DNA of 63,533 nt, filler included, from Hausera hauseri (taxonomy: Eukaryota): NCBI GenBank assembly GCA_046269625.1. It is 11 parts of 11 records of this genome, joined end to end, with 100 filler letters (N's around TTAATTAATTAA, not from the genome) between each part and the next. Parts side by side here need not be neighbours in the genome. Positions count along the whole stretch, not along the records: positions 10,217 to 16,465 come from JBJURY010120318.1; 10 more parts are not named here. One strand, 5' to 3'. The notes below the pieces were generated by a model. The model was not told the DNA's origin. It ran no database searches and saw only the letters and a program-made list of their open reading frames with translations. The translations under genes and the position numbers were made by a program. Positions 1-26,555 of this stretch are shown one piece after another. How positions within the stretch are numbered: position 1 is the stretch's first letter; each line of letters opens with the position of its first letter.

Positions 1-343
1 ACAGACATTTTCAATCAGAAAGGTGGTGTATGTGTCTATAAACAAATTCGAAAATCGACAACATGATTATAATAAAAATGAAGAATTTCCAAAAAACGAT
101 TGTTAAACGTAAACTTACCAAACGGGTGTCCGGCGGCAAGAAACGTGTATCAAAACGAACCACCGCTACAGTCAAGCAATTAATCAATTCTGTGCTTTGT
201 CGAACAACAAATGTAGCAGCTAAACGCAAATTACCGTCACAGTGGCAACGGTTGTAAACAACTACGTCTTGTCAACATCAATACGTTCAAAAAATGCGAT
301 TCAAACGTAGTCCGCCGTATTTTATTGATTTTTTAAAGCACAT

Positions 344-616: not shown

Positions 617-724
617 TATAAACAATGACGGTAAGTATATGATTAGGTGATATGGGTGCATGGTTTTCATCATTTTGTCCCAGTTTACCGAATCTTTCAT
701 TAACGTTTCGTTCTAATTGCTGCA

Positions 725-1784
725 ATGCAAACAAAAACGACATCATCGACGACAGCGATGGGCGACGTATGGTTCGATCCGCGTCATCCTGTCGGGTATA
801 CTGGCGTCAAAAAATTGGTAAAGACTGTCAAAGAGACTTGGCAACAGACCCCACGTTGGCTGGGGAAACAGTTAGCATACAGCCTAAACAAACCGACAAG
901 AAGGCGGTTTCCAACTCGTGCATACCGTGTTTCAGGTGTAAATAACGCATGGCAAATGGATCTAATGGAAATTATTCCGTATGCCAACATCAACGATGGG
1001 CAGCGGTACGTGCTGACATGTATTGATGTGTTTAGTCGTTTTGCATGTGCAACTGCTGTCAAGTCCAAATCCGGTAAAGAGATTGCCGAGGCTGTTCAGA
1101 CACTGATACAACAACAGCCGAAGCATTTACAAACGCATTTGGGTAAGGAATTTTACATCCACGTTGCAGCGGTCTTGAAACGGTGCGGCGTAAACCACTA
1201 CTCTGTTTTCTCAATACAATGGTACACTTGCTGAACGATTTAATCGAACATTGCGCGGTCGCGTAAACAAATTCTTTACGTAGCAAGGCAACAAACGCTG
1301 GATAGATGTACTGCCGGATTTTATTCATGCATACAATCATCCGACACACCGTGGAATCAACGGAATGCGCCCAGTTGACGTAATGGATGATTTTGACATG
1401 CTGCTCTATCAAAACCGAACACCACAACGACAACAGGCAATTAAACGCCCAAAATATAAAATCGGGGCTTACGTACTTATTCCGAAAATAAGTACGATGC
1501 CATTCATTAAGAATTTCAATCAGAACTGGATCGACGAGGTTTTCCGCATTTCGGCAATCAACACAAAACAAACACCTGTTATGTACGTTTTAGAGGATGA
1601 AAATGCTGAGGAAATACGCGGCAAATTTTACGAACAGGAACTGCAAGTATTACCGGAAAAACCTGATGTATATAGTATTCAGGAAATTCTACGTTCACGT
1701 GGCAAAGGTTCGAATAAACAATATCTCGTCAAGTGGCATGGATACACTGCACCGAGTTGGATTTTTGCATCACAGATTCAATGA
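725..1784 (+). pseudogene. Polinton rve integrase with C-terminal chromo-like domain (frameshifted)
   Basis: WQMDLMEI...YVLTCIDVFSRFA, LQTHLGKEF, AERFNRTL in the shifted frame, FNQNWIDEVFRI, IRGKFYEQELQ, and the chromo-like YSIQEILRSRGKGSNKQYLVKWHGY. Confidence 0.9.
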
Positions 1785-2728
1785 GCAGCAGCAGTAGCAT
1801 TTACTTGGTATTTGATAGTAACAGATCATGATCACAACATGACGACGACAATAACGCTAAACAGTTTACCATACACTTGGACCAACCGGTCGATTTACGC
1901 CACGGAGACTGGGAAGTGGCTTTTACGGAATTCATACATTTTCACCAATGAAAATACGTCAGAACAGTGGTATTTACTTTACCCGACAAGAAACGTACCC
2001 TATTTCAAGTCGTTTGCGGACAATCCGACACAATAACCGATATACTCTTCGCAATTATGCGCGACAACATTTCTCGGTTTATGCTTATTTTTCAAACTAC
2101 CGTATGAAACTAATACATCGAAATCCCATTGAAATGCAGTTTAATTCCATAGCTGATGCTCGGGCATGGGGTTTTCAATCAGTCAATGTACATTCAAGAC
2201 GTCTACAGCTAGGTGGCAATGTTATAATTGGAGAAAAAATGGGCCTTTCATTTGCGTGAGTACGTCAAGAAAACGGTTACATTAGCTGTAAAGATATGTG
2301 AAATAAACGCAGATGATCATATTTCGATTATACTACCTGACAATGTAACATATATTGCATTTGATGAATTATTGGCTCGGAATCTGGGTTTTCAAAACGC
2401 AAATTCTATAAAAACATTGCTGGACAATCTATTGTTGCAAAATACAAACCGCAACTCTAGGGAGCATTTCATAGAATTAACCGAATCCGTACTCATTGTT
2501 GGAGAACGTAAACAACTACTCGCTTCTCTCGAACTGGATTCTGACACGTACAAAACATAGGGTAAAACTGTTTGCGTTAATATTCTCAGACCCAGGTACT
2601 TATAATTGTCTCACAATACTGCGCACAGTATTTCCGTGTATATGCTTGATGCATTTTTGGAACCCATTACATTTCAGTTTGGGTCAACGACACATTTGAC
2701 GTTACATTTTCGACGTCGTCGTCGATAA
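1781..2728 (+). pseudogene. Penton/minor capsid-like protein, copy 1 (largely missed by the ORF track)
   Basis: Manual translation from ATG 1781 gives MSSSSSIYLVFDSN..DDNNAKQFTIHLDQPVDLRHGDWEVAFTEF; the C-terminus is EPITFQFGSTTHLTLHFRRRRR* (TAA 2726-2728). Both are Polinton penton terminal signatures. Internal stops are present. Confidence 0.75.
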
Positions 2729-2765
2729 TAAACAAACTGCATAATTATCATTGACATCATTGTGA

Positions 2766-3788
2766 ATGAGTATTTACATGGTGTTGCCGAGCAATTGTTG
2801 TCCGACGACTTGTCCGAACAATTCCGCCAGTGAACACGTTGTAGATTGTAACAATCCTTTGGATTTACCTGGAAAATGGGAGGTTGCACGGACAAAATTT
2901 AACTTTCTCTACGCACCAGTGACATTAAAAGGTAGTACAAAAATAACGTACAACAATATTGTTACTGAAACCAAAACATATTCTTGTCCTCTGACACTTA
3001 CTGACAATAAAATAACAATTGAAGAATCGGCCATTTACACGACCAGTACAAATTACGGATTATACGTCAAGATCGGTGCTTTTATATTATCTTTGAGTCC
3101 TCTGATATGGCGCAGAAATTTGGATTCAAAAATATAGAATAAGAAATTAAAGATATTAAAAGTGAATATGCAGTTGCTCCAGAATTAAATCCCGTATATT
3201 ACCAGACGACGGCGACATTTGCCTATACAGTACAAAGGGTGCCAACATCATACGTATCGATTGGAGACTGTCTATTGCGAATATGTAGCACACCTCTGTC
3301 AACAATTTTCTTCAAATCAAAAGTACAAGGCGATATTTAAAGTTTTCGAGTCAGATGCAACTGGCTACATTAAATTTGAACTGACTAAGGATATTGTTGA
3401 CATTTCATTGGACAAAGTTTTGGCCATCGTATTGGGTTTTGAAAAACAGCGGTTTGAGGCATCGACGAATACGAAAACGGCGGCGGTACATGTTGCAATA
3501 CTCAAACCCAAACTGAAAACGGGAATAAGTCAAATGCACATTTACGTGAACGTCACCGACCCGATTTTGATGGGTGGAATACGTGCATCGCTACTCCGTG
3601 CAATTTATCGGGAACGCAGCAAGTATACTGCTGGGGACAATGTCACTGTCAAGCTCGATAATCAAATGTACATACATGTGACATCTACATCTATAAAGAA
3701 TGCTGAAGTGAATATCCAATGTGAAGCGGGCTACCTTATGGAATTTCCGTACAATACCACAACCAGTCTAACTTTTAATTTCCGTTAA
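2766..3788 (+). pseudogene. Penton/minor capsid protein, copy 2
   Basis: N-terminus MSIYMVLPSN...NNSAS...NPLDLPGKWEVA; C-terminus MHIYVNVTDPILMGGIRASLLR...MYIHV...IQCEAGYLMEF..TTSLTFNFR*. Frameshift near 3100-3220. Confidence 0.85.
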
Positions 3789-3795
3789 ATACAAC

Positions 3796-4102
3796 ATGAT
3801 TGATTCTGAAATAGTTTCCATTTACACTAAACCCCAGGCAGGCGGTGAACTGCCGTATTTCGCCGGCAAACAGTATGGTTCTAGATGGTTGCGTTAATTG
3901 CCACGCTTAGCATTTCCAGTGTTGAAGCGTGTTGGAGCCGTGGCAGCAAAAACATAACAGGATGTACTATATGAAAAAAACGATTTTGCCATCAGTGAAG
4001 GAACACGCCTGGTCAGAAATAAAAAGCGCTGCATCGGGAGTCGTTGAATTAGTCAAAAAACATTTCGTTGTCAGTGGCTTGAGAAAACGAAAACTTGGTT
4101 GA
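3796..4102 (+). pseudogene. Small Polinton core-like protein with QxGG motifs
   Basis: Manual translation MIDSEIVSIYTKPQAGGELPYFAGKQYGSRWLR*, located between penton and major capsid as in Polintons; disrupted. Confidence 0.55.
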
Positions 4103-4152
4103 TCAGCTAGCTTTTTAACTATAAACAAACGTCGTCGTCGTACGATTTTCGA

Positions 4153-4885
4153 TTGATTGACATACAAATCACATGTCCAAAATCTGAATTGTGCATATTT
4201 TACAAAGGTGCACCACAAGTTGTTATTGACAATGCGGCATTTGAAGAAATCTACCCTGTTGATTCGGTTTCAACAAACGAAAATATTGGCATTCAATTTA
4301 ACATTATGGAATCGGACAATGAATATCTCGATTTGAACGATACACTGCTCTATGTAAAAGTCATTGTTATAAAGGATTTGTCAACGGTTCTCCCTGCAAA
4401 AGACACTATCACACCGACCAATTACCTTTTCCGCGCATTGTTCCAGGAAGCTTCACTGACTCTAAACAGCGTCAAAATCGAAGGCAACACCAATCTATAC
4501 AGTATCAAAGCACTCATTTAAACGACTCTGAATTACAGTTCAGACGCGGAAAGTACTCATTTGACGAAAACCATAGGATGTGACGCCACTGAAGCAAATT
4601 GTCAGGAATGGGTGGCAGAATCAAAAAAACTTACAATGTGTGGACCACTGTACTGTGATTTTTTTCGATCAGCCGAAATACCTACTGGCCGGTGTTAAAG
4701 TCATGATTCGGCTCAAACGCAGCGACAATGTCTTTTATTTGAAAACTGCGTTGCAAATCTCAAATCCATACTGAAAATTACCGAGGCACCATTATATGTA
4801 CGTTGAGTAAAGATAGAATCATCTGTGCTCATGGGACATCGATTGGACTTGGAAACACAAAATGCCTGTTACCCGATACAACGCA
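4153..4885 (+). pseudogene. Polinton major capsid protein (double jelly-roll), N-terminal part
   Basis: KSELCIF...PQVVI...EEIYPV...IQFNI..SDNEYLDLNDTLLYVK, NYLFRALF, FFDQPKYLLAGVKVMIRLKRS match the KSELDLF-type Polinton MCP; runs into the contig end. Confidence 0.9.
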
Positions 4886-6682: not shown

Positions 6683-9178
6683 CGGTTAAACTCTGTTAGG
6701 GGTACTCAGATACTCCAGGCAATGCAAACTTTAACACTGTTTTTAAGTGTGATGTGCATAAGATCTGGAACTTTGTGACTTTTCATATTACATGTAGGAC
6801 ATTCGTTTAGCATGTTAATTGAAACTTTGCATATGCGTTTATTGGACAAATTCCTTGTGTACAGCAGTAAACTCTACTTGGGGTACTGTCATACCCCAAC
6901 ACAACAAAGATAATTTGTGGCACTATCTTTGATAAGTTGCATCAAAAATTTTGTTATTAGGTTACTTGCTAATTATCATATAAAAGCGGTAACAGCTTTC
7001 ATGTCTATTCTGAGTGTGCTGTTATGTGTGCAGTTGTTTGGTTTTCAAAAATGACAAGTTCATTCAGATAACAACAAAACAAAAAATATTAGTTGCTAAT
7101 TATTCATTCTGTACCAAATTCTCTTCAAAAAGGGCATGGCAACAACTACTTTCATGCTTGCATATGTGAATGTGTGGGTGTGGTGGCTGGTTTGGCCGTG
7201 TCACACTTTATGCGTGAGTCATTTATTGCAGTTCAATTTCCTTCAAACATTTTACTGACAAAATTTTTGATTGCATATCTTGATCTTCCTACTACACAAA
7301 ATGCAACGCAAAGGGTTGTTTTCAGCATTAGAAATGTTGATGAACGATTCGGATGACAATGACCAAAATCTGAGCGACGACGAGGACTATGTTTTGCCTT
7401 CCAATAATCTTCAACCTATGATGAGCAGTAGCAGCGATAGTGACGAGACAGATGAAAGTGACAGTGATGGGGATGACCAACAAAATGCAACAGCTGAGAT
7501 CTTCACTGCTCCTTCTGGACGACGTTGGATATCAGCACAACATGGTAATAACGTCGGACGACTGCAACAGCGTAATATTGTTCGTCATCGGCCGGGTTTT
7601 CTTCAAGGAATCCAGTCTACTACCGAAAAGGAGTCATTTGATATATTCACAACAGAGATTATGGAAGAATTGGTCCGTTTTACAAACTTGGAAGCGAGAA
7701 GACAGTGTGGCTTGACCAAATGGCTGAATGACATTTGGAGGGATGTGGATTTGATAGAAATGCATGCTTTCATTGGAATTCATATTCTTTGCGGTGCCTT
7801 CAAAAGTCATTATCGTGATGTCAAAGAACTATTTAGTGAGCGTGATGGAATTCCAGCCCTCTATGCCGCAATGTCTCTACAGCGATTTGAATGCATTCGA
7901 AAGGTTTTCCGTTTTGATGATCGCCTAAGACGTGATCCAGCTGATACCCTTTCACCAGTTCGTTTTGTTTGGAATTTGGCAATCAAGAAATTTCAGGAAA
8001 TTTATAAGCCGGAACCAACAGTAACAATAGATGAGCAGCTTGTGGAATTCCATGGTCGAGTCCATTTCCGTCAATACATACCGACAAAACCAGGTAAATA
8101 CGGAATAAAAATTATTTGGCTTGTTGATTCAGTATCTACCTATGCTTTGAATGGAATTGTATATGTCGGTGCTGGCACTTTGAAACCTGATGAGTATCCT
8201 ACTCATCAGTTGGCAGAGCGAACAACATTGAAAATTCTTGAGCCTTACTTTGATAGCGGAATCAACGTCACATGTGATAACTGGTTTACAAGCTGTCCAC
8301 TTTTTGACAAATTAGCAGAAAAAAATATTACCGCCGTGGGAACATTGAGACAAAATCGGCGTGACATACCAGCTATTGCCAAGGAAGTCAAAAACAGGCC
8401 TCAAGGATCTGCATTGTATTATCGCAATGACAAGAATTTACTTCTATCTTACATTGACCGCAAGAAATCTAAACCAATTTTACTATTGTCCACAATGCAC
8501 AATAATCCATCTGAACCTATTGCAGATACAAAACCCGAAATTATACAATTTTATAATTCCACGAAATCGGGCGTTGACAACCTCGTTCATCTTGTCCGTT
8601 TCTACAGTAGCAAGCGCAAGACTAGAAGATGGCCGTACAGCTTCTTCATGAATCTGATTGATGTAATTTGCCTCAATGCTTACATTTTATATAAAAATAA
8701 TCACCATTCTACTGTGCGGTACAACTATTTGAAAGCTCTAGCCCTTCAACTACTACACCAACAAATGAAACGTCGCTTAGTGGATCCAATGAATAATCGT
8801 ATCAAGTCAGCTCTAACTTTGTTTGTTGACCTTCCTCAGACAGTTATGACAAATGCTACTGCTACAAAAAGGGGCCGTTGTCAGCATTGTCCCAGATCGT
8901 TAGATAAGAAGACAGATATACAGTGCAGAAAATGTAACAATTTTCTCTGTGCTCAACATCGGATCACTATTTGTGCAACATGCTACAATAATTCTGTTTA
9001 ACTGTAAGTCCGCTTAATTACACTTAACAATGCTAAGTTATTCTATGAACTTTGTGCTTACATATTTATTATATGACTGTTTGATCTTATAATCGTTAGA
9101 AAGTTTCAGTAATACGTTGGGGTATACCCATACCCCAAACAGAGTTTACTAAATTAAAAATTTTCCAGAGTTTAACCG
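6683..9178 (+). mobile_element. Complete piggyBac DNA transposon (~2.5 kb)
   Basis: TTAA at 6679-6682 and 9179-9182 flank perfect 13-bp TIRs CGGTTAAACTCTG (6683-6695) / CAGAGTTTAACCG (9166-9178); ~35-bp subterminal inverted repeats at ~6866-6900 and ~9116-9150; one long transposase ORF. Confidence 0.95.
7301..9001 (+). CDS. piggyBac transposase (uninterrupted, ~566 aa from first ATG)
   Basis: Acidic N-terminus; TIDEQL, YIPTKPGKYGIKI, VTCDNWFTS, GTLRQNRR, YNSTKSGVD, RRWP; C-terminal Cys-rich domain CQHC...CRKC...CAQH...CATC. Confidence 0.95.
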   Translation: MQRKGLFSALEMLMNDSDDNDQNLSDDEDYVLPSNNLQPMMSSSSDSDETDESDSDGDDQQNATAEIFTAPSGRRWISAQHGNNVGRLQQRNIVRHRPGFLQGIQSTTEKESFDIFTTEIMEELVRFTNLEARRQCGLTKWLNDIWRDVDLIEMHAFIGIHILCGAFKSHYRDVKELFSERDGIPALYAAMSLQRFECIRKVFRFDDRLRRDPADTLSPVRFVWNLAIKKFQEIYKPEPTVTIDEQLVEFHGRVHFRQYIPTKPGKYGIKIIWLVDSVSTYALNGIVYVGAGTLKPDEYPTHQLAERTTLKILEPYFDSGINVTCDNWFTSCPLFDKLAEKNITAVGTLRQNRRDIPAIAKEVKNRPQGSALYYRNDKNLLLSYIDRKKSKPILLLSTMHNNPSEPIADTKPEIIQFYNSTKSGVDNLVHLVRFYSSKRKTRRWPYSFFMNLIDVICLNAYILYKNNHHSTVRYNYLKALALQLLHQQMKRRLVDPMNNRIKSALTLFVDLPQTVMTNATATKRGRCQHCPRSLDKKTDIQCRKCNNFLCAQHRITICATCYNNSV

Positions 9179-10216: not shown

Positions 10217-12930
10217 CTTAAGAAAAAGCCTGGCTCCAATGAGGAAATAGATTTAGAAGATCAAAAGATGCCGAAATGGTATCCTCCTCCACATTGGTTA
10301 AGACCGGAGATAAAAAAAGAAAGTAGAACGAATGTTAAAGGCCGACATAATTAAATCGAGCTACCGATCATGGTACTCCATATACTCATGATTAAGAAGA
10401 AAGGTACTACGAAGCACCCATTTTGTATCAATTATCGAGCGTTAAACACACTTATGATAAAAGATTCATTTCCACTACCATCGGAAAAAGAAGCCCTAGA
10501 TAGGCTTTCCGGAGCAAAATGGTTCACCACACTTGATCAACAGTCTGGATATTGGCATGTAGAGATAGAGGAAGAAGACCGCTATAAAACTGCGTTCAAA
10601 ATGCACTACGGTGTTTACGAATTCAACGTCATGCCATTCGGAATAACTACGGGACCTGCTATTTTTCCCGAATGATGAATAAGATGTTAATGGGACTAGA
10701 ACACGCGTTCGCATATCTGGACGACGTAATGGTTGCGTCCAAAGTGGAAGAAAAACATCTAAAGTACATTGAGGACATACTCATGGGGATAGAACAAGCC
10801 GAATTAAAATTGAATCTCAAGAAATGTAAATGGGCTCAAAACGCTGTGTCTTATCTCGGACATATAGTTGGAGAAGGAGGATAAAAGCCGTATAAATCAC
10901 TGTTGAGTAAGATATCATATTGTATGGAACTTCCAAATTCGAAAGAGTTAAGACATTGGTCAGGCTTGTGCGGATATTACGCCACTTATGTACCGGACAA
11001 TTCAAAAATAAATGCACTCTTGTATCGCTTACTTAAAGGGGATTAAATTAAAATGGACTGATGTTGAACAAAAGGCTTTCGACGAAAACATGAAAATCTT
11101 AACTAGCGAACCCGTTTTAAGATATCCTGATTTTAACCTACCGTTCATAATTAAAACGGATGCAAGCAAAGAAGGCATTGACTACGAGTTAGCTCAAAAG
11201 CGAGAAGAAAAAGAATCGGAACATCCGATTGCATACGGAGGAAGATCACTAAAGAAAGCTGAGAAGCATTATTCTGTTACAGAATTAGGAACGTTAGCTG
11301 TAAAAGAAGCTCTACGACACTTTAACGTATACGTCTACGGACAGAAGATTATAATTGTTACGGATCATAAAGAAGTTACAACATTTAAAGGCAGAGCAAA
11401 TAGTCCGACATGCAGACTCAACAGATGGATCAAAGAGATCTCACGATTTAATATTGAATTTCAGTACAAACCCGGATGCAAACATGTCTATGCCGATGCG
11501 TTATCAAGACTCAAAACCAAAACAAGCGCGATTACCATAATGGGAAAGCTCAGCTAGAAGAATGAGTGGATAGAAAACTGATTCTAACAATGGATAAAAC
11601 AATTAAAAATTCTACCAAACAAAAGAATGACAAAATTATACATTAAATCATCGAATTTGTTGGAAAAAATATAACGCCAAAGGGTCACCAACTACGAAAG
11701 CATTTGCAAAGACATGGTCATAAATACTGCGCAACAGGAGACACGAACTGCGGAAACGTATTGCATTATGAACGGAAAGGACGAAAATTAGTAGTCATAC
11801 CAAAAGGACTACGTACAGAAGTACTAATTGCCGAACACAACTCTTATTTAGCCGGACACGTCATGGAAGAATACATTAGAAAGAATATTAAAGAAGTATT
11901 ATTGGCCGAGCATATATATCGATGTAAAGAATTTGATGAATGCTTGTGAAGTATGCGCAACCAAACAGAAAAAGTAAAAACTATATTCCCGAACTTAAAC
12001 CAATAAACGTGCGGACAGACCAATGCAAGCAATGTCCATGGATATTGTAGGACCGTTACCTACAACTCACAAAAATAATAAGTATATTCTAACACGTGTA
12101 GATCAATTAACCCATTTTGTCGAGCTTATAGCATTAATGGACCATAAGGCCGAAACTCTAGCAGAAGCCGTAGTAAGGAAGATTATCTTTAGACACGGAC
12201 CTCCTGAACAAATTTTGACAGACCGAGAAAGAAACTTTACAAGTGAGTTCTCTGAGTAAATTACCAAAATATTCGAGATTGAACGATTAACCAAAACAAA
12301 CGATTACCATGCAACGGATTGGTTGAACGAATAAATGCAACAGTTATACGTATCTTATCCACCATGGCTAAGAAGGACCAGAAAGATTGGGACGAATTTT
12401 TAGAGGGCATATAGTTTGCCATAAACACTACACCACATCCTGCAACAGGATTTACTCCATTTATTGTGATGTGCGGCACAGAAGATGTAATACCCACGGA
12501 TTTAGGAATGATACCATATCAGTGAAAACGGAACAGTTAGAGCGAAACTTTGTTGAAGTATTACAGATGAGACTACATAAGTGTTGGGAAATATCCAAAG
12601 AATTATCTAGAGAATATCAAGAACAATTCTAAACGTAACACGACACGAATGCTAAATTACACGACCTAGAACAAGGGAATTGGATATATGTGCACTATCC
12701 AGTAGCGAAGAAAGTTCCATCTTTGAAACTTACCCGAACAGGCAGAGGACCATACGAAGTTATCAGAACCACGCCAGCTACAGTTTATATTAATGGAAAT
12801 GACAAGGAAGAAGTCGTATTAATACAAAGAGTGATTAGAACGGAAATAAGACCGAACAAACGCTATAATCTGCATTCGGACAGAGAGAATCCGAGACTAT
12901 CCAAGCAAGAAGGGAAAACGTCACCTATAG
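10217..12930 (+). pseudogene. Gypsy pol: reverse transcriptase, RNase H, integrase
   Basis: FTTLDQQSGYWHV, VMPFG, FAYLDDVM; KTDAS, YSVTELG, VTDHK, ADALSR; H..YLAGH, SMDIVGPLP, ILTD, NGLVERIN; GPY module; order RT-RH-IN; many stops. Confidence 0.95.
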
Positions 12931-12941
12931 CCACAAGACCG

Positions 12942-14240
12942 ATGTCATATGTACAAATAGTTCTTGCCTTGTCATTAATCGCCTCGTATATGCCAAGCGT
13001 AAGATCAATAACCCTGACCGAGAAACGGCAATATGCACAAAGACGTAAGGATATGCAAAACTTGTAGTCACTTAGAGTATACGATATGGATTTGAGCAAA
13101 CCCTGTGCCTGGTTCAAGGCAAGCGAATTGGTTAAGAACCACGTAAAGTTTCAAATAATATTTATGAATAGGATTGGTGTCGAGATGAAGACGTGTGATT
13201 TTCCGTATGGAACCTATCAGAAATGTTGCGACTTAGATTTTGATTAAACGTATAGATATAAACTTTAAATGTTCTATTATAACCTGCACGGAGTCCAGGC
13301 CTACATAATTACCGAATTTGAAACAAAAATGTCCCAACGAGACGATGCGAACAAAGCCAAAACAGACAAAATAATCCTGAATACCAACCTAGAATACCGA
13401 CTCCTACATTTTAACATTATTGGGATCGAAAAGTACTTCCAGAACCATTGTATTCGAATTAAGATTAAAATAGAATTGCCAGGAGATAGGCAAACCTCCA
13501 TTCGGTTCATACCATCGAACGTTTCAATCCCATCCACAGAGTATTGTTATATTGCACGACGCCGATCTACTACGTTCTGTAGACTGCCGTTAGGACACGA
13601 TTACCAATTGCAACTTGATCTGTATAATACTTATCCAAAGGAACCAAGTACATATCTGAGAGGATACCTCCCAAGGGTTGAAATATAGAAACTTCCACTT
13701 CTAACAACTACGAGAAAACCGTCTAATATTCCGAGTACGACTATTGCCACTGCGATAATCACTTCGAGTGAAATACCCGAGCAAGAATTGAGGAGTATAC
13801 CAATTAAGGTATTGACGCAAAATAATAAAATTTTGTTTTATGCAGAAGAATTGATAAACTACGAAATTAAAATTGAATGCCGAACCTTGCACACTAATCA
13901 AATCGTAATTTTAAAAAACAATCGAAAAATCGAATGTAAATCTTTGCGGCCGCAACACGATTATGTGATCCGAATTACTGCCAAGGGTCGAAGACCTGAA
14001 ATTTTCACGGTGCGGACTCGTCATGACGAATCAAGAGCAACGCGATATAAAGACCTTAGTACCCGTAATGTGCTTACTACAAAAGGGCATAGTGAGGCAA
14101 ATAGTTTACCGATAATAACTATATTTGGTTTTTCAACTTTTATTCTTGTCATATTAACAGCGACGATTTTCTTAGTTTCCAAAAACTGTAATAAACAGAG
14201 TAAAAATCAACAGAGGAATAAACGGGAAAAGGGATCGTGA
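12942..14240 (+). pseudogene. Type I membrane protein (signal-like segment, three FN3-like repeats, S/T-rich linker, TM) in frame after integrase
   Basis: MSYVQIVLALSLIASYMPSVRS; repeats CCDLDFD*TYRYKL, FCRLPLGHDYQLQL, CKSLRPQHDYVIRITA; TTTRKPSNIPSTTIATAIITSS; TM IITIFGFSTFILVILTATIFLV. ORFs at 12690, 13269, 13788 and 14391 share one frame. Confidence 0.6.
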
Positions 14241-15618
14241 GACGGGCTTTATGATAGTATAACCTGACAATTACAATCAGACAGAGGAACTAAAGTAAAA
14301 GACACGTTTCCTGACGTTACCGGAATTACGAAACTACAACTTGCGAAAGGCAAAGATTTCCTAGAAATCCAAGAAGATATAAGCCACGGCTTGTATGGAT
14401 TTATTATAATCGGATTCAGAGTACATGAAATGCTAGTAAGGCTAGGGATTAGACAAGAGTGCATAGCTGGAATTCGTGAAGTAAAATGCGTCGTTTGTAA
14501 AACGCGTGGAAAACACCCTAATGAGGTAAAGAGGATATCAACTTCCCTTAGAGTCACGAGAATCACAGTTTAAGATGATGCTTGAAGCCATGAATGGCGA
14601 ACAATTTAGATTTCATAAGTTAATGATAGCAAACAAACGCACGAAACCAATAAGAGATATTTACATATCGCTACGATGGAAACACGAGTGGAAACTCAAA
14701 AACCCTACACAGAATGTAATCTCTGACAGTAATCCAAAAATCTTAATGCAGAAAATCCGTAAGGGGTTTAGTAAATACCCGATATCTAGACATATTGAAC
14801 CCCAAGGGCATAATAATTTCCAAATAACCGTTCAAAACAGTCCAACCAAACCATTCAAACCAGAAGGACCAAATAAGTACAACCAACCCTTAATCGATCG
14901 AGTCTAAATTAAGTACAGACCGGCTGAAGAATTACGAAGACGAAAAAAGACGAAACCATCATTCTTTGAGTATATAAGCAAGAAGAAAACCAAGACAAAT
15001 AAAAACTGTGCTGAAGGGATAAAACCGTCCACTAGCAGCCTAATGCTGACGGCCAAAAAAGAAATGATAGAATCCAAGGACAAACTGAAAACGCCAGAAC
15101 ACGGAAAAACTACCGGACGAGGAACAGAAACGATCAGTTGCGGATCACTTAGAACGGAAGTAAACATTCTCCGAAGAAATTGGGAACAAACAGCCCCTAT
15201 CGTGGTAACCGAGTTCGGTCAGATTAAAGAATACGCCCAAATGTTGGTTATGGCCGAATATTATAGCAGAGGAAAAATTAAAGAAGCCATGTTTTATGTC
15301 ACCACCGTTCCTAGAAGAATCGTAAGTGGAAACGGATATGCCCGAGAGGATGTAACCATTGGCCGATACTTAGCCCCAATATCCCAGTCGAAAAATGGTA
15401 CCAATAGATTAACCATCCTAGTAGATACCCAAGTCCTAGTACGACTTAAAAGGCAGTACAAGAAAACCGGAATACCCGACTTAGACAAACAAGAAATCGT
15501 TGAATGGACGTTAGTCACCGTGTCAGATGACCCTAAGAAAAGTTCTATAGACCCCAAACATAAAGGATATACGGATATCTATACCAAGATAAAAAGGGAC
15601 TGGTATTCGAACGAATAG
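14241..15618 (+). pseudogene. Uncharacterised accessory coding region of the retroelement
   Basis: Co-oriented ORFs 14391-14573, 14575-14907 and 15043-15618 (last two in one frame) with the same A-rich codon style as pol; no family recognised. Confidence 0.5.
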
Positions 15619-15661
15619 AAGTTGATGCAAACCTCGTAGACATTGATGGGGTGAAAAAGAA

Positions 15662-15800
15662 GAATGTCCCGTGTGTGATGCAAATCTTATCAAGAATTTG
15701 TGGCATTAGATAACAAAGATTTCACCCATATATATTGCCGTTATTGCTTAGAAACGTGGACCATAAGAAATGAAATAACTACTCCCAAGTTTGTAGAGCC
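15662..15800 (+). pseudogene. Degenerate C3HC4 RING finger
   Basis: Across two frameshifts: ECPVC...EFVALDNKDFTHIYCRYCLETW...YSQVCRAE; two Cys ligands appear mutated (TTC; TAC/TCC). Confidence 0.55.
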
Positions 15801-16120
15801 GAAGCTACAAAACTGAGATATTTCTCTAACGGAGAAAGTAAAAGGATAGTGGAAATATTTCTTCAAAGGGCCACCACATTATACCACTTTGACAAACAAT
15901 CACCCCGAGATGAATTAAATTCGGAAACGGACTTACGCGGACGAATGAACCATCCACGCGGCACCTCTTCTGACGCAATTGGCACATACGAGAGTGCCGT
16001 TCAGGGAGAAATGTTGTAAAAGAGGCAAAAAACGTTGTAGAAAGAACAAGGAAATGTATAATAGAAACCAAAACCGAAAGTAAAACGGAATTTAACAAAT
16101 AATTATTTAACCAGAAATTA

Positions 16121-16465
16121 TGTAACGATTACTTAGTGCATGTAGTTATTTAATTTACAACGAATGTGAAAATTGTAAATCAAATAAATAAAGCAGATTA
16201 AGGCACACAAATGACCACAGATATATATATATAGTGATCGAATTGAAAGAGAAAAGGTTTGTGGAGTACAAATCGTATTAAGTCTAAGCAAGCAAAGCAG
16301 AGATATACTATTAAATCAAGCGACCTAATTTATCAGTTTTTCCGACGAAAGTCCGTGTCGAGGAACCGGACCGATATTTCGAAATTGTAGAGATTGATTT
16401 CGAATTATTCTTGTTGATTGCCGACCCTACGATTGTACGTAAGGTATTTTTGTTATTGTAAATAA
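16121..16465 (+). repeat. Probable 3' LTR (partial)
   Basis: Non-coding tract starting TGTAACGA just after the last ORF, containing AATAAA and a TATA-like run; no second copy in the window and only a weak polypurine tract. Confidence 0.4.
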
Positions 16466-16565
16466 NNNNNNNNNNNNNNNNNNNNNNNNNNNNNNNNNNN
16501 NNNNNNNNNTTAATTAATTAANNNNNNNNNNNNNNNNNNNNNNNNNNNNNNNNNNNNNNNNNNNN

Positions 16566-19500
16566 TGCTGTCAGCCATGCATGAAATTTTGGAATGATAC
16601 CCCCAATGGTTTTTTAAGCACATGAAAGATTCTGGAATGTGGGAATGCTAGCCTTAAAGGTTGGCGACCTATGAGAGACAATTTATACAAATACTTGTAA
16701 TTGAGCGATGCGCGAGAGTCTGTAATGAGAGCCCCATTGGTTGATTAGCCATGCACGAGATTCTTTAACGATAACCTCAGTGGATATTGAGCCATGCGAA
16801 AGTTTCTGGAATGATAGACCTAATGGTTGATGAAACATGCTCCACAATCTGGAATGATAGTTCCATTGGTTGTAATGCATGCGCCAGATACTGGAATGAC
16901 AGCTGAAGTTGATAGTGAGCCATTACTCCACATTTTGGAATGATAGCTCCATTGGTTGTAAGGTATGCGCCTAAAGTGAGCCATGCGCGATATTCTGGAA
17001 TGATAGTCCCAATGGTAAGATAAGATAAGGTCTCAACCACTGTTGAGAAATTTTGTGGGTGAGCCATGCGCGAGATTATCGATTGCTATCAACCATGCAT
17101 GAAATTTTTAATCATACCCCTAATGGTTGGTTGGCCTTGTTCCGCATTCTTGAATTACATTCCCAATGGTTGTTTTCTTGCGAGAGATCCCAGCATGATA
17201 ACCACAAAGGTTGGATATCCGTGCGAGAGAACATAGGTAGTTTAATTGGTTGATTAGCCATGCGCGATATACTGGAATTATAGCAGCCCATCCGGAATGA
17301 TACCCCCAATGGATTTGTAAGAATATAAAAGATTCTGTAATGTGGAAATGATAGCCTTAAAAATTGGCAAGCCATGAGAGGCAATCTAAACAGATATTTG
17401 TAATTGAGCCATGCGCGAGAGTCTGTAATGAGAGCCCCATTGGTTGATTAGCCATGCACGACATTCGGGAACGATAGTCCCAATGGTAAGATAAGATGAG
17501 GTCTCAACCACGGTTGAGAAATATTGTCTGTTTACATTTCTGCCCTGCTTGATGAGAAATGTGTGAGATTATGGAAAGGTTGCCCAAGTGCTTACTGAGT
17601 CATTCACGAGATCCTGGAATGGTAGCCCCAATAGATGGTGAGTCATGCGCAAGATTCTAGAATGATAGCCCCATTTGTGGGTGATGCATGCGCGAGATTA
17701 TCGATTGCTATCAGCCATGCATGAAATTTTAGAATGATACCCCCCAATGGTTTTTTAAGCATATAAAAGATGCTGGAATGTGGAAATGATAGCCTTAAAG
17801 GTTGGCAAGCTATGAGAGACAATCTAGACAGATATTTGTAATTGAGCCATGCGCGAGAGTCTGTAATGAGAGCCCCATTTGTTGATTAGCCATGCACGAG
17901 ATTCTTTAATGATAGCCTTAGTGGGCCATGCGAAAGTTTCTGGAATGATAGACCCAATGGTTGATGAGTCTTTCACGAGATTCTGGAATGATAGCCCCAG
18001 TGGATGGTGAGCCATGTGCGAATTTCTGGAATGATAATCCCAATGGTTTTGTAAGCATATAAAAGATTCAGGAATGGGATTGCCCTTAAAGGTTGGCGAG
18101 CTATGATAGACAATTTAGACCAATATTTGTAATTGTTAGTGAGCCATGCGCGAGAGTCTGTAATGATATGGTTGATTGGGTGATGCATGCGCGAGATTCT
18201 AGAATGATAGCCCCATTTGTGGGTGATCCATGCGCGAGATTGTCGATTGCTGTCAGCCATGCATGAAATTTTGGAATGATACCCCCAATGGTTTTTTAAG
18301 CACATGAAAGATTCTGGAATGTGGAAATGATAGCCTTAAAGGTTGGAGAGCTATGAGAGACAATCTAGACAGATATTTGTAATTGAGCCATGCGCGAGAG
18401 TCTGTAATGAGAGCGCTACTGGTTGATTTAGCCTTGCACGAGATTCTTTGAACGATAGCCTCAGTGGATAGTGAGCCATGCGAAAGTTTCTGGAATGATA
18501 GACCCAATGGTTGATAAGACATACTCCACATTCTGGAATGATAGACCCAGTGGTTGTAACGCATGCGCGAGATACTGGAATGATAGTCCGAATGGTAAGA
18601 TAAGAATAAGGTGTTTATTCATCCAGGGTTGAGAAATATTGTCTGTTTACATTTATGCCCTGGTTGGTGAGAAATGTGTGAGATTCCGAAATGGTAGCCC
18701 CAGTGCTTGCTGAGTCATTCGCGAGATTCTGGAATGAGAGCTCCAGTGGATGGTGAGCAATGTGCGAAATTCTGGAATGATAGTCCTTATGGTTTTGTAA
18801 GCATATAAAAGATTCTGGAATGTGGGAATGATAGCCCTTAAAGGTTGGCGAGCTATGAGAGATAATTTAATAAAATTTAATGAAATTTTAGAATGATACC
18901 CCCCAATGGTTTTTTAAGCATATAAAAGATTCTGAAATGTGGGAATGATAGCCTTAAAGGTTGACAAGCTATGAGAGACAATCTAGACAGATATTTGTAA
19001 TTAAGCCATGCGCGAGAGTCTGTAATGAGAGCCCCATTGGTTGATTAGCCATGCACGAGATTCTGGAACGATAGCCGCAGTGGATAGTGAGCCATTACTC
19101 CACATTTTGGAATGATAGCTCCATTGGTTGTAAGGTATGCGCCTAAAGTGGATGGTGAGCCATGCGCGATATTCTGGAATGATAGTCCCAATGGTAAGAT
19201 AAGATAAGGTCTCAACCACTGTTGAGAAATATTGTCTGTTTACATGTATGCCCTGCTTAGTGAGAAATGTGTGAGATTCCGGAATGGATGCCCCAGTGCT
19301 TGCTGTGTCTTTCACGAGATTCTGAAATGATAGCGAGCCATGCGAAAGTTTCTGGAATGATAGTATTAGTTTATGGTAAGCCATGCGCGAAATTCTGGAA
19401 TGATAGACCCGATGGTAAGATAAGATAAGGTCTTAACCAGGGTTGAGAAATATTGTCTGTTTACATTTATGCCCTGGTTAGTGAGAAATGTGTGAGATTC

Positions 19501-21491
19501 CGGAATGGTAGCCCCAGTACTTTCTGAGTCATACACGAGAGTCTGGTATGATAGCCCCAATAGATAAGTGAGCCATGCGCAAGATTCTAGAATGATAGTC
19601 CCATTCGTGGGCGATCCATGCGCGAGATTATCGATTGCTATCAACCATGCATGAAATTTTGGAATGATACCCCCGATGGTTTTTTAAGCATATGAAAGAT
19701 TCTGGAATGTGTAAATGATAACCTTAAAGGTTGGCAAGCTATGAGAGACAATCTAGACATATATTTGTAATTGAGCCATGCGCGAGAGTCTGTAATGAGA
19801 GCCCCACTGGTTGATTAGCCATGCACGAGATCTTGGAATGATAGCCATAGTGGTAGGTGAGCATGCACGAGACTCTCGATTGATAGCCAAAACTGTTGGT
19901 TTCACGCATTGCTCCCCATTCACGCAGGCTCAACAACCACTGGGTTGGCTAACCATCTATTGATGCCATCATTCCAGAATCTCGTGCATGTCTCACCAAT
20001 CACTGGTGCTATCATTACATGTAGCACATGGCTCACGATTCCTTTTAGCTATCAATCCAGAATTTAGGGTATGTCTCACCATCCGTATGGGCTATCATTC
20101 CAAAATCCCGTTCATGGCTAATCAACCAGTGTGGTTATCATTCCAGAACCTCGTGCATGAATCATTCCAAAATTTCACGCATAGTTTACCATCCACGCAC
20201 GGCTCAACAACCACTAGGGCTATCATTCCTGTATCTCGTGCATGCTTCAAAACCATTGGTGCTTTATAAACCATTGGGGCTAAAATTCCAGAATCACGCG
20301 CATGTCTCACAACAAGCATGGCTATCATTTCAGAATTTCATGCATGGGTCACCAACTGTTAGGGCTATCAATCGAAAAATCAATCGCATGGAACACTAAA
20401 CAACTGAGGCTATCATTCTAGAATGTTTCACATGGCTAACCAACCATTGGAGCTATCATTATAAAATTTAACGCATTCCTCACCATCCACGCACGGCTCA
20501 ACAACCACTGGAGATATCATTCCAGAATCTCGTGCATGGCTCACCAACCATTGGGGCTATCGTTAAAGAATATCGCGAACGGCTCACCAACCATTAATGA
20601 TATCATTCCAGCATCTCGTAAAAGGCCCATCAACCGTTAGGGCTATCATTCTAGAATTTTGCGTATGGTTCGCCAACCACTTTAGCTATCATTCCAGTTT
20701 CTCACGAATGTCTTACAACCATTGGTGCTATCATTCCAGAATGTGGAAAGTCCCATTCCAGAACGTCGTGCATGGATCACCAACAGTTGGGGCTAATAGT
20801 CCAGAATCTCTCGCTCACCAACCAATGGAGGTATCATTCCTAAATTTTACGAATTGATCACCATCTACGTACGGCTGAACAACCACTGGTGCTATCATTC
20901 CAGAATTGGCTTACCAACTATTGATTCCATCATCATAGAATTGGCTTAAAACTATTGATGCTATAATTCCAGAATGTAGGGAATGTCTCACCATCCATTG
21001 GAGCTATCATTCCAGATGCTTTCGCATGGCACAGTATTCACTGAGGCTATCGTACCAGAATCTGCTCATGATTCAGCAAGCATTGCCACTATCATCTCAG
21101 AATCTTGCGCATGGATCACCCACTGATCATTTCAGAATCAGACGCATGTCTCATGAACCAATGCAGATATAGATCCACATTCTCACACATGTTTCACCAA
21201 CCAATGAGGCAATCATTCCGGAAACTCCCGCATGACACTCCAAGCATTGGCTCTATTATTCCTGTTTATCATGCATGGCTCATCAACCGTTGAGGCCAAC
21301 GGAATCTCACTCATATCTCAACAACCATTGGTTCTATCATTCTAGAATGTCTCGCATGGCTCTCTAACCACTGGGGCTATCATTCTAGAATCTCACGCAT
21401 GGCTCACCAACTATTGGAGTTATCAATCTAGAATCTCGCTCATGCTACGTTTGTGCGAAATTTTTTAACGATAGTCTTAATGGTTGGTGAG
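16566..21491. repeat. Satellite array, ~43-bp monomer with higher-order structure
   Basis: Consensus approximately CCATTGGGGCTATCATTCCAGAATCTCGCGCATGGCTCACCAA; runs in reverse orientation 16566 to ~19900, forward ~19900-21445, then reverses again. Confidence 0.92.
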
Positions 21492-21591: not shown

Positions 21592-24314
21592 TATCCGGCT
21601 AAATATGAATCATGTTCGGCCATGAATACTTCGATACGCAATCCTTTCGGAATAACTATTAGTCTTCTTCCTTTTCGTTCGTAATATAAGATATTATCTT
21701 GATTCGATGCGCAATATTTATGTCCGTGTTTCTGTAGGTGTTTTTTAAGTTGTCGTCTTTTTGGCATTTTGTCGTTTTGTACAAACTCGATGATTTGTTG
21801 TATAATTTTGTCTTTAGCTTGCTCAGCTGTAATTCTAATCGTCTTATCCAATATTAGCGTTCTTTGTCGTTCGATCAGTTTTTCAAGTTGTGGTTTCTTT
21901 ATTTTGGTGATTGCGCTCGTTTTTGTCTTTAATCTTGACAATGCGTCGGGGTCGATATGTTTGTTGCCCGGTTTATATCGAAATTCGATGTTATATCGTG
22001 AGATTTCCTAAATCCAACGATTTAGTCTGCATTTTGGGTTATTAGCTCTTCCTTTCAATGTCGTAACTGCTTTATGGTCGGTTACTATTATAATCTTCTG
22101 TCCATAGACATAGACGTTAAAATGTCGAAGTGCTTCCTTAACAGCTAGCGTTTCTAGTTCGGTAACTGAATAATTCTTTTCTGCTTTCTTCTCCGAGCGT
22201 CCTCCATAGGCTATAGGATGTTCCAGCTCTTTATCTTCCCGTTTTTGAGCTAATTCATATCCTATGCCCTCTTTACTTGCATCTGTTTTAATGATGAATG
22301 GTAAGTTAAAATCAGGGTATCTTATAACCGGTTCGCTTGTTAGGATTTTTTTCATTTCATCGAATGCTTTTTGCTCAACGTCTGTCCATCTTCATTTAGT
22401 TCCTTTCTTGAGTAGGCGGTATAGTGGTGCGTTAATCTTCGAGTTATCTGGTACATAAGTGGCATAATACCCACATAGGCCTAACCAATGTCTTAACTCC
22501 TTTTGATTCTGTGGTTCGATACAATCAGATATTTTATTTAACAAAGATTTGTCCGGCCTCGATCCTCCTTCTCCTACTATATGTCCGAGGTATGATACTG
22601 CGTTCTGTGCCCATTTGCATTTCTTTGGATTCAGTTTTAAACCTACTTGTTCCAATCGTATGAGCGTGTTTTCAATGTCTTTTAAGTGTTCGTCTTCTAT
22701 TTTCGATGCTATCATCACGTCGTCTAAGTACGCGAATGCATGGTCCAATCCCATAAACATTTTTTTCATCATTCTCGTAAAAATAGCTGGTCCTATGGTG
22801 ATGCCAAAAGGCATAACATTAAATTTGTATACGCCATCGTGTGTCATAAACGCTCTCTTATATCGGTCGTCCTCTTCGATTTCTACCTGCCAGTATCCCG
22901 ATTGCAAGTCGAGAGTGGTTAACCATTTTTCTCCTGATAGTCTGTCTAAAGCTTCTTTTACCGATGGTAGGGGAAACGAATCCTTCATCATAAGAGTATT
23001 TAATGCTGGATAGTCTATACAAAATCGATGTTTTGTGGTTTCTTTCTTTTTAACCATAAGTATGGGTGAATACCATGATCGGTAGCTCGGCCGAATTATA
23101 TTGGCTTTCAACATTCGCTCTACTTCCTTAGTTATTTTTAGTCTCAATGAATGTGGAGGTGGATACCACTTTGGCATTTTCTGTTCCTGTAGATCGATTT
23201 CATCGTTCAAGCCTGGTTTCTTCCTTAATGGAATTGTTAGTTTCAAGGTCTTAGCTCTACCTATATCTTCCTCGTATTGTGCAATTATCGAACTGTGTTT
23301 ACATAATAATTCGTAAAACCTGCAGTATGCCTCAGGAGAAAATTTGGTTTCGACGTAAGGTGGAAACTCTGCGTACTTGTATGGTTTTTCTTCTATTGTT
23401 ATTGCTGATACCCTGCAACTGTGACCTAACGTAGTGTTATCGTGCAATTTCACTGTTGTTAGTGCATTGTTCACTAATCTAATGGGTATCCGTCCCGTTA
23501 CTACCCTACAGAGAATATTACTAAGCATGAGATTTGGGTCGATATCCTCTTGAGGTTCAAAATATACGGGCAAATCGTGATCTTGACGAATCTGTGCAAA
23601 AATTATCATTTCAGTCCTGGACGGAATGTCCTCGTCTACTGGAATCCATACTTCGACTGACTTCCTTTCCTTTATTACTTTTGTCCCTTTTATTGATTCG
23701 AGCTCGAGTAATTTTTTGCTATGCAAATCGATTGCTAAACCTGGTATCTGTTTTAATACTTCACAACCCAGTACTAAATCATCTGTTAATTGGTCCATTA
23801 GGGCAAATTCGTGTTGAATTGCTTGACCCATTATATAGACGATAGGAGTCAATTTGAATTTTGGCTTCGATATTTGTCCAAATGCTCCTACACTACCCGG
23901 ATCCGATGACAACGGCGTACACAATTGTTCCCGTAATGTGGTGGGTATCGATTCGTACTTTATAAACGATTTTTCCGATCCCGTGTCAATTAAGGCATAC
24001 ACTTCCCAATCTTCGATGTGTATTTTAGCGAAGGGCCTCCCTTCTACCACTGTTCCGACACCATTGGTTGTCATTTTTGGTTGTTTTATAGTAGAGACTC
24101 TATGCCCGTTTATTGTTATTTCTGGCGACGAAACGATATTTTCTCTTAGTTGTCCTAGTTCTGCGCTTGGATATAAATTATTATTTGCCATTTCGCTGCT
24201 ACGGCTGTCGATGAGCGATTCTTGGCGTAGTGAACCTGGGATTGAGCATAGTTTCGGATTCTCCCAGATCGTTGATTTCGATTCTATATGACGAGGTATC
24301 CTTTTGGAATACAA
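21592..24314 (-). pseudogene. Gypsy pol: aspartic protease, RT, RNase H, integrase N-terminus
   Basis: VYALIDTGSEKSFI; HRFCIDY, LTTLDLQSGYWQV, VMPFG, FAYLDDVM; KTDAS, YSVTELE, VTDHK; EHDSYLAG. Confidence 0.95.
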
Positions 24315-24338
24315 TATCCCGTGGTCGTTTTGTGTTGG

Positions 24339-26555
24339 TCATTGATTGCTGACGTTCATTTTCCATAATACTCCGTATTGTTTCGTTTTTTCATATGGAT
24401 CTTCATAATTAATAGGTTTTTGATCGATTTTGGACTTACTTGATGCGATTGACGTACGGTCAAAGTCTTCATATATTGGTGCTGTTGGTGGTATTATGGG
24501 TAATGGCACGTTGATCACTGAATAAATTTTGCGCATCTTGTTCCTGGAACTTCCTTTTCCTCCCTTAGGCTCATCATCATCTGAATTATCCCTTCGTGTT
24601 GTTGTTTTCTTCGTTTTCCGTCTATACAGAATCGAGGGCCTTCCTCGTCGTTTACGATTGTAATATCCAACGTGGCGTTCTATGTCATTTCTACATCGGT
24701 TTTCTTCATAAGCTTTAAGCATTTTGCCAAAGGGTGTGATAATTTCGGTCAAGATTTTGCAAGAAAATTTTGTTAAGGTGAATATTTCATACCCATTTAT
24801 AATGGCTTGGATTATTGCCTTAACTAACTGGATTAGAAAGTAAATAGCTAAGAATCCAGATGCGGCCTGTCTGAAAATTAGAAATCTTTCCCAGATCTTA
24901 TATAGTATTTCTGAGGTTACTCTTTGATAGTGATTAGCACCTAATAGCGATTCCCATTTTGTTTGAAAGCGAGTATTATCTACAACCATCGACATGGCCC
25001 GATTTAGTTCATAAGTTCTTTGTCGCGGAAATGCTAGGAACTGTCTAAAGGCTTCTATGTCCTTCGGTCTATAAATTCCTTTATTGGTTGTATCTTCGAA
25101 TTTTTCTTCCGATAGTCCTTTTATTAGGTTGGTTCCAGTTAGCTTGCTTGGGGCTGTAGCGGCGCCTCCATTGGGCAAGCTTATCCAGTCTGTTCCACTA
25201 CGGCGAAACATAGGTTCACCCAGACTCGTTTTTCATTCCTTCAGTATTGTCGGTTCCGTCGAGTTGGCGAACAGTACCCTGGTAAGAGGCATCGCTAGCC
25301 TTGGCATATTTTCGTAGATAACTGGTAATTCCTGCATACATCTATTTTCCTCTACATTGATCGGTACGTCTCTTTTCTCGCACTCGTAAGTTAATAGAAC
25401 TTCCCCAGTAACCCGTCCAATGACACCTTCTTTCATTAGTACAATTGGTGACGCCAATTCCGGGTTGGCACAAATTAAAGCTAGTTTGGTTCTCATGACT
25501 TCAGTGTCTAATCTGCAGTCATTCATTAACATCTTGTGGTATAGTTCTGCTATTCCGGTTTGTCAATTATAATAAAAGTAATCATCCTGGTTCTTGAGGT
25601 AATCTTCAATCCGCACGTCTTGTGTTTTCAAATCGTACGTTTTCATGTTAATTTCAGTTTCCGCTACGAAGAATGCTTCGTAGTTGGTGGAGTACATCAT
25701 TAAGTCGCAACGTGTTAACATATCTTTCGGAATGAATTTTAATCCATGTGTATACGACATCAATATCGTTGGTGTAGGCTGTTCTATTACATCTTCCCTC
25801 GATCTCGTATAAGTATGTAATTTATTTGTATACCGTTTTTCGGTCGTTTTATTAAACTTTATCTCCTTGATCCTAATAAAATAGCATTCTCTCTTCAAAG
25901 GTGGACTTCATACGATAACTGAACTTTGGAACGTACATGCGCCATCCTGAATGTGACATTTTTGATTCTCGGTAAATAGTTTAGTAACGCTATGGGACAT
26001 TGCTTTTAGATATCTTAATTTGGTTTTGAAAAAATCTACGACTACTATTCCTCCTTCCTTTCCTTTTCCGGTATCGTATTAGGCTCCGACACAATAGCCT
26101 GTGTGCATGTTTAATTTTCCTACTGCCACTTTGTAGGCTCTAATTATTTTCCCTCCTTATGCTTCTAACTCCATGCCGTTCCAAACCATTTAACCAGTTA
26201 ACCGGGCTCCTAAACAATGCTGCCTATCTACGTTCATCGGAATTAATGGTGTAGTTGGTTTGATTATTGAAGAATNNNNNNNNNNGAATGACCGTGCGTG
26301 TTACCACAATGAAATACGCTGCGAGATCTTCGTATCATGCATTCTATTGCCTCCATTGCGATTAGTTCTCGTTGTTGATATAATATATATTTCCCTTCCA
26401 CTGTCTCGAGCTTGTGGGGTCGTGCGTCTTCACATGTTTCTAAGTCCATCAAAGAATATTTCTGACCCACTTTGAATTTATCGCAATCATATACAGTAAC
26501 TGCTCCCATCTGCTTTACCAACATCATTACTGTCAGTAAGTTGATTAACCAGTTG
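24339..26555 (-). pseudogene. Chuvirus-like (class III) envelope fusion glycoprotein
   Basis: Hydrophobic leader, then VTVYDC...YSL...C, LYQ...ECMIRRSRSVFHCG..GH; CRL..EV..TKLAL..ANP....M.EG..G...GEV...Y.C...CMQELPV...PLTRVL; GIY...D......LAFP; W..F..F..AASG TM ...IINGY. This order matches chuviral G proteins and their retroelement-captured homologues as I recall them. Confidence 0.8.

Follow-up and report, generated by a model that had tools for sequence, protein, structure and literature searches.

Pieces of one retroelement on four contigs

The DNA stretch analysed here (the window) comprises 63,533 nucleotides, filler included, of Hausera hauseri (GenBank assembly GCA_046269625.1), and is made up of 11 mutually unlinked contigs with N-spacers between them. 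Four of these contigs bear pieces of one Ty3/gypsy lineage, a retroelement whose main coding frame appears to hold two membrane proteins, one before and one after its Pol domains. Protease (PR), reverse transcriptase (RT), RNase H (RH) and integrase (IN) follow one another in that order, with an RT and an RNase H of gypsy type, as in Ty3/gypsy elements (Metaviridae). From run X1, 8426 pieces align to the focal contig (JBJURY010120318.1), and the family is therefore high-copy. The focal family is a decayed, multi-copy Ty3/gypsy retroelement, represented by the following pieces (Ubl, ubiquitin-like; G, glycoprotein).

10217–16465 (+): focal contig; RT, RH and IN, then the 3' modules
21592–28058 (−): copy A; helical region, Ubl-like region (~27231–27482), pre-signal helical region, signal 1, G (~26494–24750), tail with PTAP (24488–24477), PR, RT, RH, start of IN
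46083–50367 (+): copy B; Ubl-like region, G, PR, linker
56279–63533 (−): copies C and D in tandem; helical region, Ubl-like region, signal 1, G (87% identity over 2.86 kb)

A sequence-only reading of the window had stitched these copies into one polyprotein of ~4,000 codons that enters the lumen twice and ends in a RING region. The overlaps that it used are borne out at the DNA level: besides the 87% between C and D, copies A and B share 4.3 kb at 79.6% and copy A and the focal contig 1.6 kb at 74.6% (A and C are 66% identical). C and D form a head-to-tail duplication with a 4.4-kb period, in which the truncated G of copy C continues in frame into the helical region of copy D near 59213. Pfam scans found neither a Gag capsid nor a zinc knuckle in the window's pieces, so the ~4,000-codon figure leaves out Gag. 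The focal contig carries the features below (ORF, open reading frame; FN3, fibronectin type III; LTR, long terminal repeat; AF2, AlphaFold2).

10217–11043 (+): RT, interrupted by stops and frame changes, its 5' part lost at the contig end (tblastn with intact relatives)
11044–11512 (+): RNase H (PF17917, E 6e-29; PF17919, E 7e-31)
11620–12902 (+): tether and integrase, with a GPY motif, an RYxL motif at 12861 and several frame changes
12942–12998 (+): second signal-like segment (signal 2), weakly hydrophobic (KD13 2.0), in frame with the IN C-terminus; all six relatives compared have a counterpart behind IN
13362–13685 (+): first beta-rich, FN3-like repeat, weaker evidence (alignment; strands in a low-confidence AF2 model)
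13779–14033 (+): predicted FN3-fold domain (Pfam, AF2, Foldseek, relatives' profile)
14112–14186 (+): second transmembrane segment (TM2), then net +5 charge
14265–14273 (+): in-frame TGA CAA TTA, where the polyprotein ORF probably ends; candidate site of type I readthrough
14268–14573 (+): in-frame extension of 101 codons, the 55th being its first ATG; one CxxC, no Pfam match
14575–15618 (+): downstream ORF in a different frame, ATG one base past the TAA
15564–16019 (+): decayed RING-finger region, pieces in three frames (a 38-aa piece matches zf-C3HC4 at E 0.02)
16245–16261 (+): purine run then TG, which may be a polypurine tract and the start of an LTR (from sequence; second copy not found in the window, where contigs are short)

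The Ubl-like region, signal 1 and G of copy C lie in a single frame from 61857 to ~60700 with one stop (60937–60939), and in copy D the ORF 56223–56981 passes through an open leader into G, as had been proposed. In copy A, a single frame of 1560 codons leads from G to the start of IN and contains 9 stops, where the alternative frames contain 100 and 153. The best frame of the focal contig between 12540 and 14573 also has 9 stops, against 50 and 58 in the other two; in 2000 shuffles the best frame averaged 41.5 stops, with a minimum of 25. Positions 12690, 12942, 13269, 13788 and 14391 all share this frame, which confirms that IN is in frame with signal 2 and with the ORFs behind it. Within Pol the focal copy shifts frame ~7 times. 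Of the aligned codons that bear a stop, 2 of 34 are common to window copies, and the shared stop in G is open in copy B. The ratio of non-synonymous to synonymous change (dN/dS), compared pairwise per domain, was below 1 throughout, at 0.07–0.23 in 7 of 7 A/B regions and 0.15–0.41 in four C/D regions; the element's regions are under purifying selection.

The G of copies A, B and C matches PF24664 (Monjiviricetes; a chuvirus-type, class III fusion protein), and in copies A and B this envelope gene (env) lies 5' of pol. An env of herpes simplex virus glycoprotein B (HSV-gB)/chuvirus type with a signal and a transmembrane (TM) segment, the mark of gB-type errantiviruses, is found in the window. 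Signal 1 aligns with that of 12 relatives. Upstream of it, the helical-plus-Ubl region is homologous to the same region of one relative (P0054, E 1e-4), and another (P0006) has a Bcl-2 match at E 1e-3; a PDB search with the window region gave no Bcl-2 match. The DTG of the protease is intact in copy A. A word-index search of longer proteins with the PR region matched none of 2471 candidates, a weak negative. Between PR and RT lies a conserved linker of ~190 codons with no Pfam match at E 0.05, dUTPase-like domains included. The PTAP in the G tail of copy A was considered as a late domain; it reads PTVP in copy B, is absent at that place in the relatives and is thus not conserved, and the idea was dropped.

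Intact relatives and the second ectodomain

An exhaustive protein search with the G-to-PR stretch of copy A found 481 proteins at E 0.001, of which 150 were listed; 18 of these, picked by score and length, were scanned for domains. In 11 of the 18, G is followed by protease or RT on one chain, while four have G without a Pol domain, two have G after integrase and one has Pol only. A cluster member of 4844 aa (P0152) and a metagenome contig with a single 2663-codon ORF (L001) were added to this set. L001 was the one match among the 593 metagenome candidates listed in a locus scan; locus scans of viral and prokaryote collections gave no match.

Six of these proteins (P0002, P0003, P0017, P0111, P0152 and L001) run past integrase to their own end. 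All six have a signal-like segment after integrase, followed by an ectodomain of ~230–400 residues and a second TM segment, which is weak in P0017. Five carry G, Pol and this post-integrase cassette in a single ORF; the sixth, P0111, was found by its protease match only, and it too has signal, FN3-like region and TM segment after IN. These intact natural ORFs show the same domain order as the stitched window copies, which removes the worry that the order was a product of stitching, and they support the core of the earlier proposal, a single ORF whose product enters the lumen twice, with G ahead of Pol and the FN3-like protein behind IN. A Gag knuckle or capsid match lies upstream in frame in P0007, P0011, P0021, P0054 and L001. 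A quick tree built from the first 45 of 130 rows places the window G in a group of 22 rows, mostly polyprotein G proteins, apart from stand-alone glycoproteins of ~650 aa.

Some of the relatives have further peculiarities. Repeated aspartic-protease-like domains occur in P0152, P0007, P0005, P0008 and P0002, with up to seven in P0152, some of them after integrase; P0152 also bears ankyrin, C2H2 and an additional hydrophobic segment. The P0003 record belongs to a Flavobacteriaceae metagenome-assembled genome, where it is labelled a hypothetical protein; it probably comes from a eukaryotic contaminant contig.

The post-integrase protein is, by modelling, one that carries an FN3 fold. A PDB sequence search with an alignment of the two window repeats and segments of three relatives returned mostly FN3 proteins (best E 0.003). 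The second repeat (13779–14033) matches Pfam fn3 at E 0.062, and its AF2 model (pLDDT 75) was placed by Foldseek with fibronectin type III domains at TM-score 0.76. A profile of the three relatives alone ranked the window ORF first among 1118 six-frame pieces (E 1.7e-4, the next at 0.2) and also retrieved P0111, which was outside its input, at E 0.015; this test is partly circular, because the segments had been picked by likeness. A single-sequence AF2 model of the whole cassette had low confidence (pLDDT 43). In P0017 and L001 a different ectodomain occupies the same slot. N-glycosylation sequons did not convincingly separate luminal from cytosolic parts (2 in 470 versus 2 in 860).

Stops, readthrough context and the RING region

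The stop at 14265 stands in the context TGA-CAA-TTA, which matches stop-CAR-YYA. The type I readthrough motif of tobamoviruses is UAG-CAR-YYA, and it works with UGA too (PMC3542737). In the window, CARYYA follows 14 of 6906 stop triplets and one of the 21 listed coding-frame stops. The 101 in-frame codons past 14265 are open, with a chance of 0.0002 (5000 shuffles), and include a near-cognate ACG at 14304. The long frame then closes at the TAA at 14571–14573, and the next coding stretch, in another frame, starts with the ATG at 14575 and is open to 15618.

Contigs of run X1 aligned to 14150–14700 in 357 pieces, for which only differences above 40%, less 8 rows, were listed; depth here adds up contigs and does not give a copy number, and X1 is possibly the assembly's own source. 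Summed depth was 10,600–19,900 in four bins (14245–14282 and 14568–14605) and 47–3,400 in the other 25. The four high bins resemble the RT core in depth and contain the stops at 14265 and 14571, neither of which has a difference among those listed (depth >10,000). The stop at 14238 is not common, being absent from 24.1 of 31.1 depth. Record 8, which is 16% diverged, is colinear over 14519–14695 with 28 differences and no gap, so the frame change near 14570 is not private to the focal copy. The stops at 14265 and 14571 look common to most copies in this one run.

None of the protein chains of the six intact relatives has a RING, and their tails past TM2 are ~5–115 residues long. The downstream ORF (14575–15618) has no hydrophobic segment and gave no match in Pfam and PDB searches; word-index searches matched 0 of 2037 longer and 0 of 1123 near candidates (weak negatives), and an Atlas search with 14908–15615 found no usable match. 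Rfam gave no match.

The polyprotein ORF likely ends at 14265. This stop is probably leaky, to judge from its context, and would append the 101-residue cytosolic extension to some of the TM2 tails. The RING-bearing stretch probably lies outside the polyprotein, as an accessory ORF of its own from 14575 on, because no relative has it and the two stops look shared; the TAA G ATG junction would suit termination-reinitiation (PMC3542737), a +1 shift or a separate RNA. The proposal that the RING region forms the cytosolic end of the same chain is thus not upheld, nor is a single frame through it, as the long frame ends at 14571, ORF 14575 lies in another and pieces of the RING relic occur in three. 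The ~4,000-codon figure omitted Gag and counted in ~580 codons behind stops. Reckoned from the coordinates, the main ORF has ~3,400 known codons, excluding Gag.

Proposed architecture, surroundings and precedents

It seems rather likely, on this evidence, that the main frame comprises the Ubl-like region, signal 1, chuvirus-type G, a first TM segment (TM1), PR-RT-RNase H-integrase, signal 2, the FN3 ectodomain and TM2, with the missing Gag likely at its start and its end likely at 14265. A single chain, crossing the membrane four times, would give two envelope proteins, with a probably leaky stop and a separate RING ORF behind them. Processing, topology and readthrough we infer from the sequence. 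Each internal signal would direct the domain that follows it into the lumen of the endoplasmic reticulum and be cleaved by signal peptidase, and TM1 and TM2 would each halt translocation, so that Pol would be made as a cytosolic loop tethered at both ends. The element's own protease would free Pol once chains cluster at the budding membrane. The predicted products are a Gag-Ubl-helical piece anchored in the membrane, a long-tailed G, free Pol and a type I FN3 membrane protein; with one chain as their source, Gag:G:Pol:FN3 would be held near 1:1:1:1 and all four would be packaged together. The FN3 protein occupies the usual gypsy env slot after integrase and likely serves the class III fusogen as a partner for attachment or host interaction.

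Two other readings concern the end of the chain. In one, polyprotein synthesis ends at 14265 without readthrough, spliced or subgenomic RNA serves to express both the 101-codon frame and the RING ORF, and the conserved block is a splice acceptor or promoter element in which CAATTA is coincidental. CTGAC at 14264–14268 and AG at 14279–14280 do resemble a branch point and acceptor, the relatives terminate within ~5–115 residues of TM2, and spliced RNA is common among envelope-bearing retroelements (PMC2829016). However, the strongest type I context is matched exactly (chance 0.002 per stop), the downstream frame is the same frame, a pyrimidine tract is absent, and three contigs lose their match behind 14275, ahead of the AG. 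This reading we consider unlikely. Very unlikely is a single uninterrupted ORF of ~4,000 codons through the RING, in which the stops at 14238, 14265 and 14571 and the frame change at ~14570 would be decay of the focal copy. Two of these stops have no listed difference, record 8 is colinear across the frame change, and the RING continuation is seen in none of the six relatives. On the other side, the coding signal is gapless from 12540 to 16019, one more frame change in a copy with ~7 in Pol would be unremarkable, the stop at 14238 is indeed not common to the copies, a single gap falls somewhere within 14499–14679 in record 7, and the matches of 20 X1 contigs end at 14560.

The stitch might also mix two elements, the focal contig coming from a subfamily that lacks G and has just the FN3 cassette, and the G-bearing copies ending otherwise. 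G and the 3' modules never stand together on one window contig, leaving no physical link within the window, and copy A and the focal contig are saturated at silent sites. Their non-synonymous difference (pN) is nevertheless 0.08–0.19, far below the distance of either to any database relative, and five intact relatives have G and the 3' membrane module together; a mixture of elements is highly improbable.

The separation of the modules, the silent-site saturation, the gap in record 7 and the matches lost at 14560 all weigh against the main reading, and so do several other observations. The relatives are distant, with RT identity of at most 44% and a long branch in a 9-row tree without reference clades. 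Signal 2 is only weakly hydrophobic. The best matches of the Ubl-like region are weak (Rad60-SLD_2 at E 0.82, ubiquilin UBLs at E 0.86–1.3), and for a Bcl-2-like domain the window ORF ranks first at an E of only 1.5. L001 has no CARYYA after its own stop, and folding of the two junctions showed no sign of RNA structure (z −1.4 to 0.5). Genuine frame-change indels in IN reached just 22–31%, under the 40% listing threshold, so the lack of a listed indel at the end of the ORF is weak evidence. Finally, an in-frame TGA after TTT AAA lies in the helical region before signal 1 in copy A (26833–26835, −) and copy B (46688–46690, +). These two copies are ~20% diverged yet share it, while C and D have a sense codon; it may be recurrent decay, or a subfamily-wide stop separating the Gag side from G, and it tells against a single frame in that subfamily.

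The remaining sequence of the window holds other elements and host pieces. A piggyBac-type transposase (7271–9001, +) has 576 stop-free codons and matches PF13843 at E 7e-66. Polinton/Maverick-like pieces (704–4521, 35786–36289 and 43989–44633) include, by eye, an integrase with a chromodomain, capsid-like ORFs and DNA polymerase B fragments; 43989–44633 has an Endonuclease VII match at E 0.005. An unrelated decayed gypsy pol lies at 51335–53354 (−), ~27–34% identical to the relatives. The N-terminus of host RALGAPB (29011–29586, +; E 1e-22) lies within a long open stretch, and an ABC-transporter-like host piece (by eye) lies at 32407–32934 (+). Between 16566 and 21491 there is a complex satellite of ~45-base units, direct and inverted, with higher-order repeats. 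The host is an animal, as seen from the host exons and the piggyBac and Polinton-like pieces.

To our knowledge, retroelements are generally regarded as having one envelope gene at most. Nematode endogenous retroviruses (Sacco et al. 2022) reportedly have a continuous gag-env-pro-pol ORF, with env before pro-pol and no post-integrase membrane cassette. The giant planarian gypsy elements Burro and GYPSM1 place env between gag and pol, in frame, within a single huge ORF; Burro exceeds 25 kb, with MATH, BIR and ankyrin domains and a dUTPase-like domain between PR and RT (PMC6431247). The present element resembles Burro in having env between gag and pol in one ORF (as seen in the frame of copy A and the intact relatives), candidate Ubl/SUMO-like and BCL2-like domains before env (the window's matches to both being weak), an env resembling arthropod mononegavirus glycoproteins, a RING-type motif and accessory ORFs. 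It differs in that MATH, BIR and ankyrin are not seen in the window fragments; compared by description only, the parts of the Burro paper drawn on mention neither a second signal/FN3/TM cassette after integrase nor readthrough. GAG-ENV-POL errantiviruses with an HSV/gB-type env occur in Nematoda, Bryozoa and Platyhelminthes, those of flatworms measuring 12–18 kb (Chary and Hayashi, PMC13524379), and share with our element a gB/chuvirus-type env 5' of a Ty3/gypsy pol. The words fibronectin, readthrough, polyprotein and ubiquitin are absent from the main text of that paper, whose figures and deposited ORFs could still show the cassette.

The first membrane excursion is therefore already known, since an in-frame env between gag and pol has been published (PMC6431247, PMC13524379). 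The element had been described as RNA-virus-like rather than gag-pol-env; given that env and the Gag upstream in frame in relatives, it is best read as a gag-env-pol element and not as an RNA-virus-like oddity. As in type I readthrough (PMC3542737), a stop is followed by CAA UUA and an in-frame extension, here with UGA; unlike in those cases, the extension is predicted to lengthen the cytosolic tail of a membrane protein that ends an animal retroelement polyprotein. The env of SIRE1 is made via stop suppression (PMC2829016). The post-integrase FN3 cassette and the readthrough context were not in the literature searched, although figures, supplements and deposited sequences may hold them. What appears to be new here is the presence of two envelope-type proteins in one gag-env-pol Ty3/gypsy ORF, and a candidate readthrough site at its end.

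A broader proposal, put forward tentatively as possible rather than probable, is that these proteins belong to a widespread, unrecognised lineage of enveloped retroelements, in which a class III fusogen and an FN3 attachment protein would come from one four-crossing polyprotein with a doubly anchored Pol; the branch in this host would add plant-virus-type readthrough into a zinc-binding tail extension, then a stop-restart into a RING ubiquitin ligase. Pipelines that halt at integrase or limit elements to 10 kb would overlook the second cassette, and the 14265 context would be a small recoding signal open to direct testing. If the proposed architecture is true, a whole lineage has two envelope proteins through flavivirus- or alphavirus-style threading of one chain, and its enzymes would be tethered to the budding membrane rather than produced by a Gag-Pol frameshift. 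Retroelement envelopes of gB type seem to have no receptor-binding partner, and the FN3 protein would then be a concrete candidate for that role.

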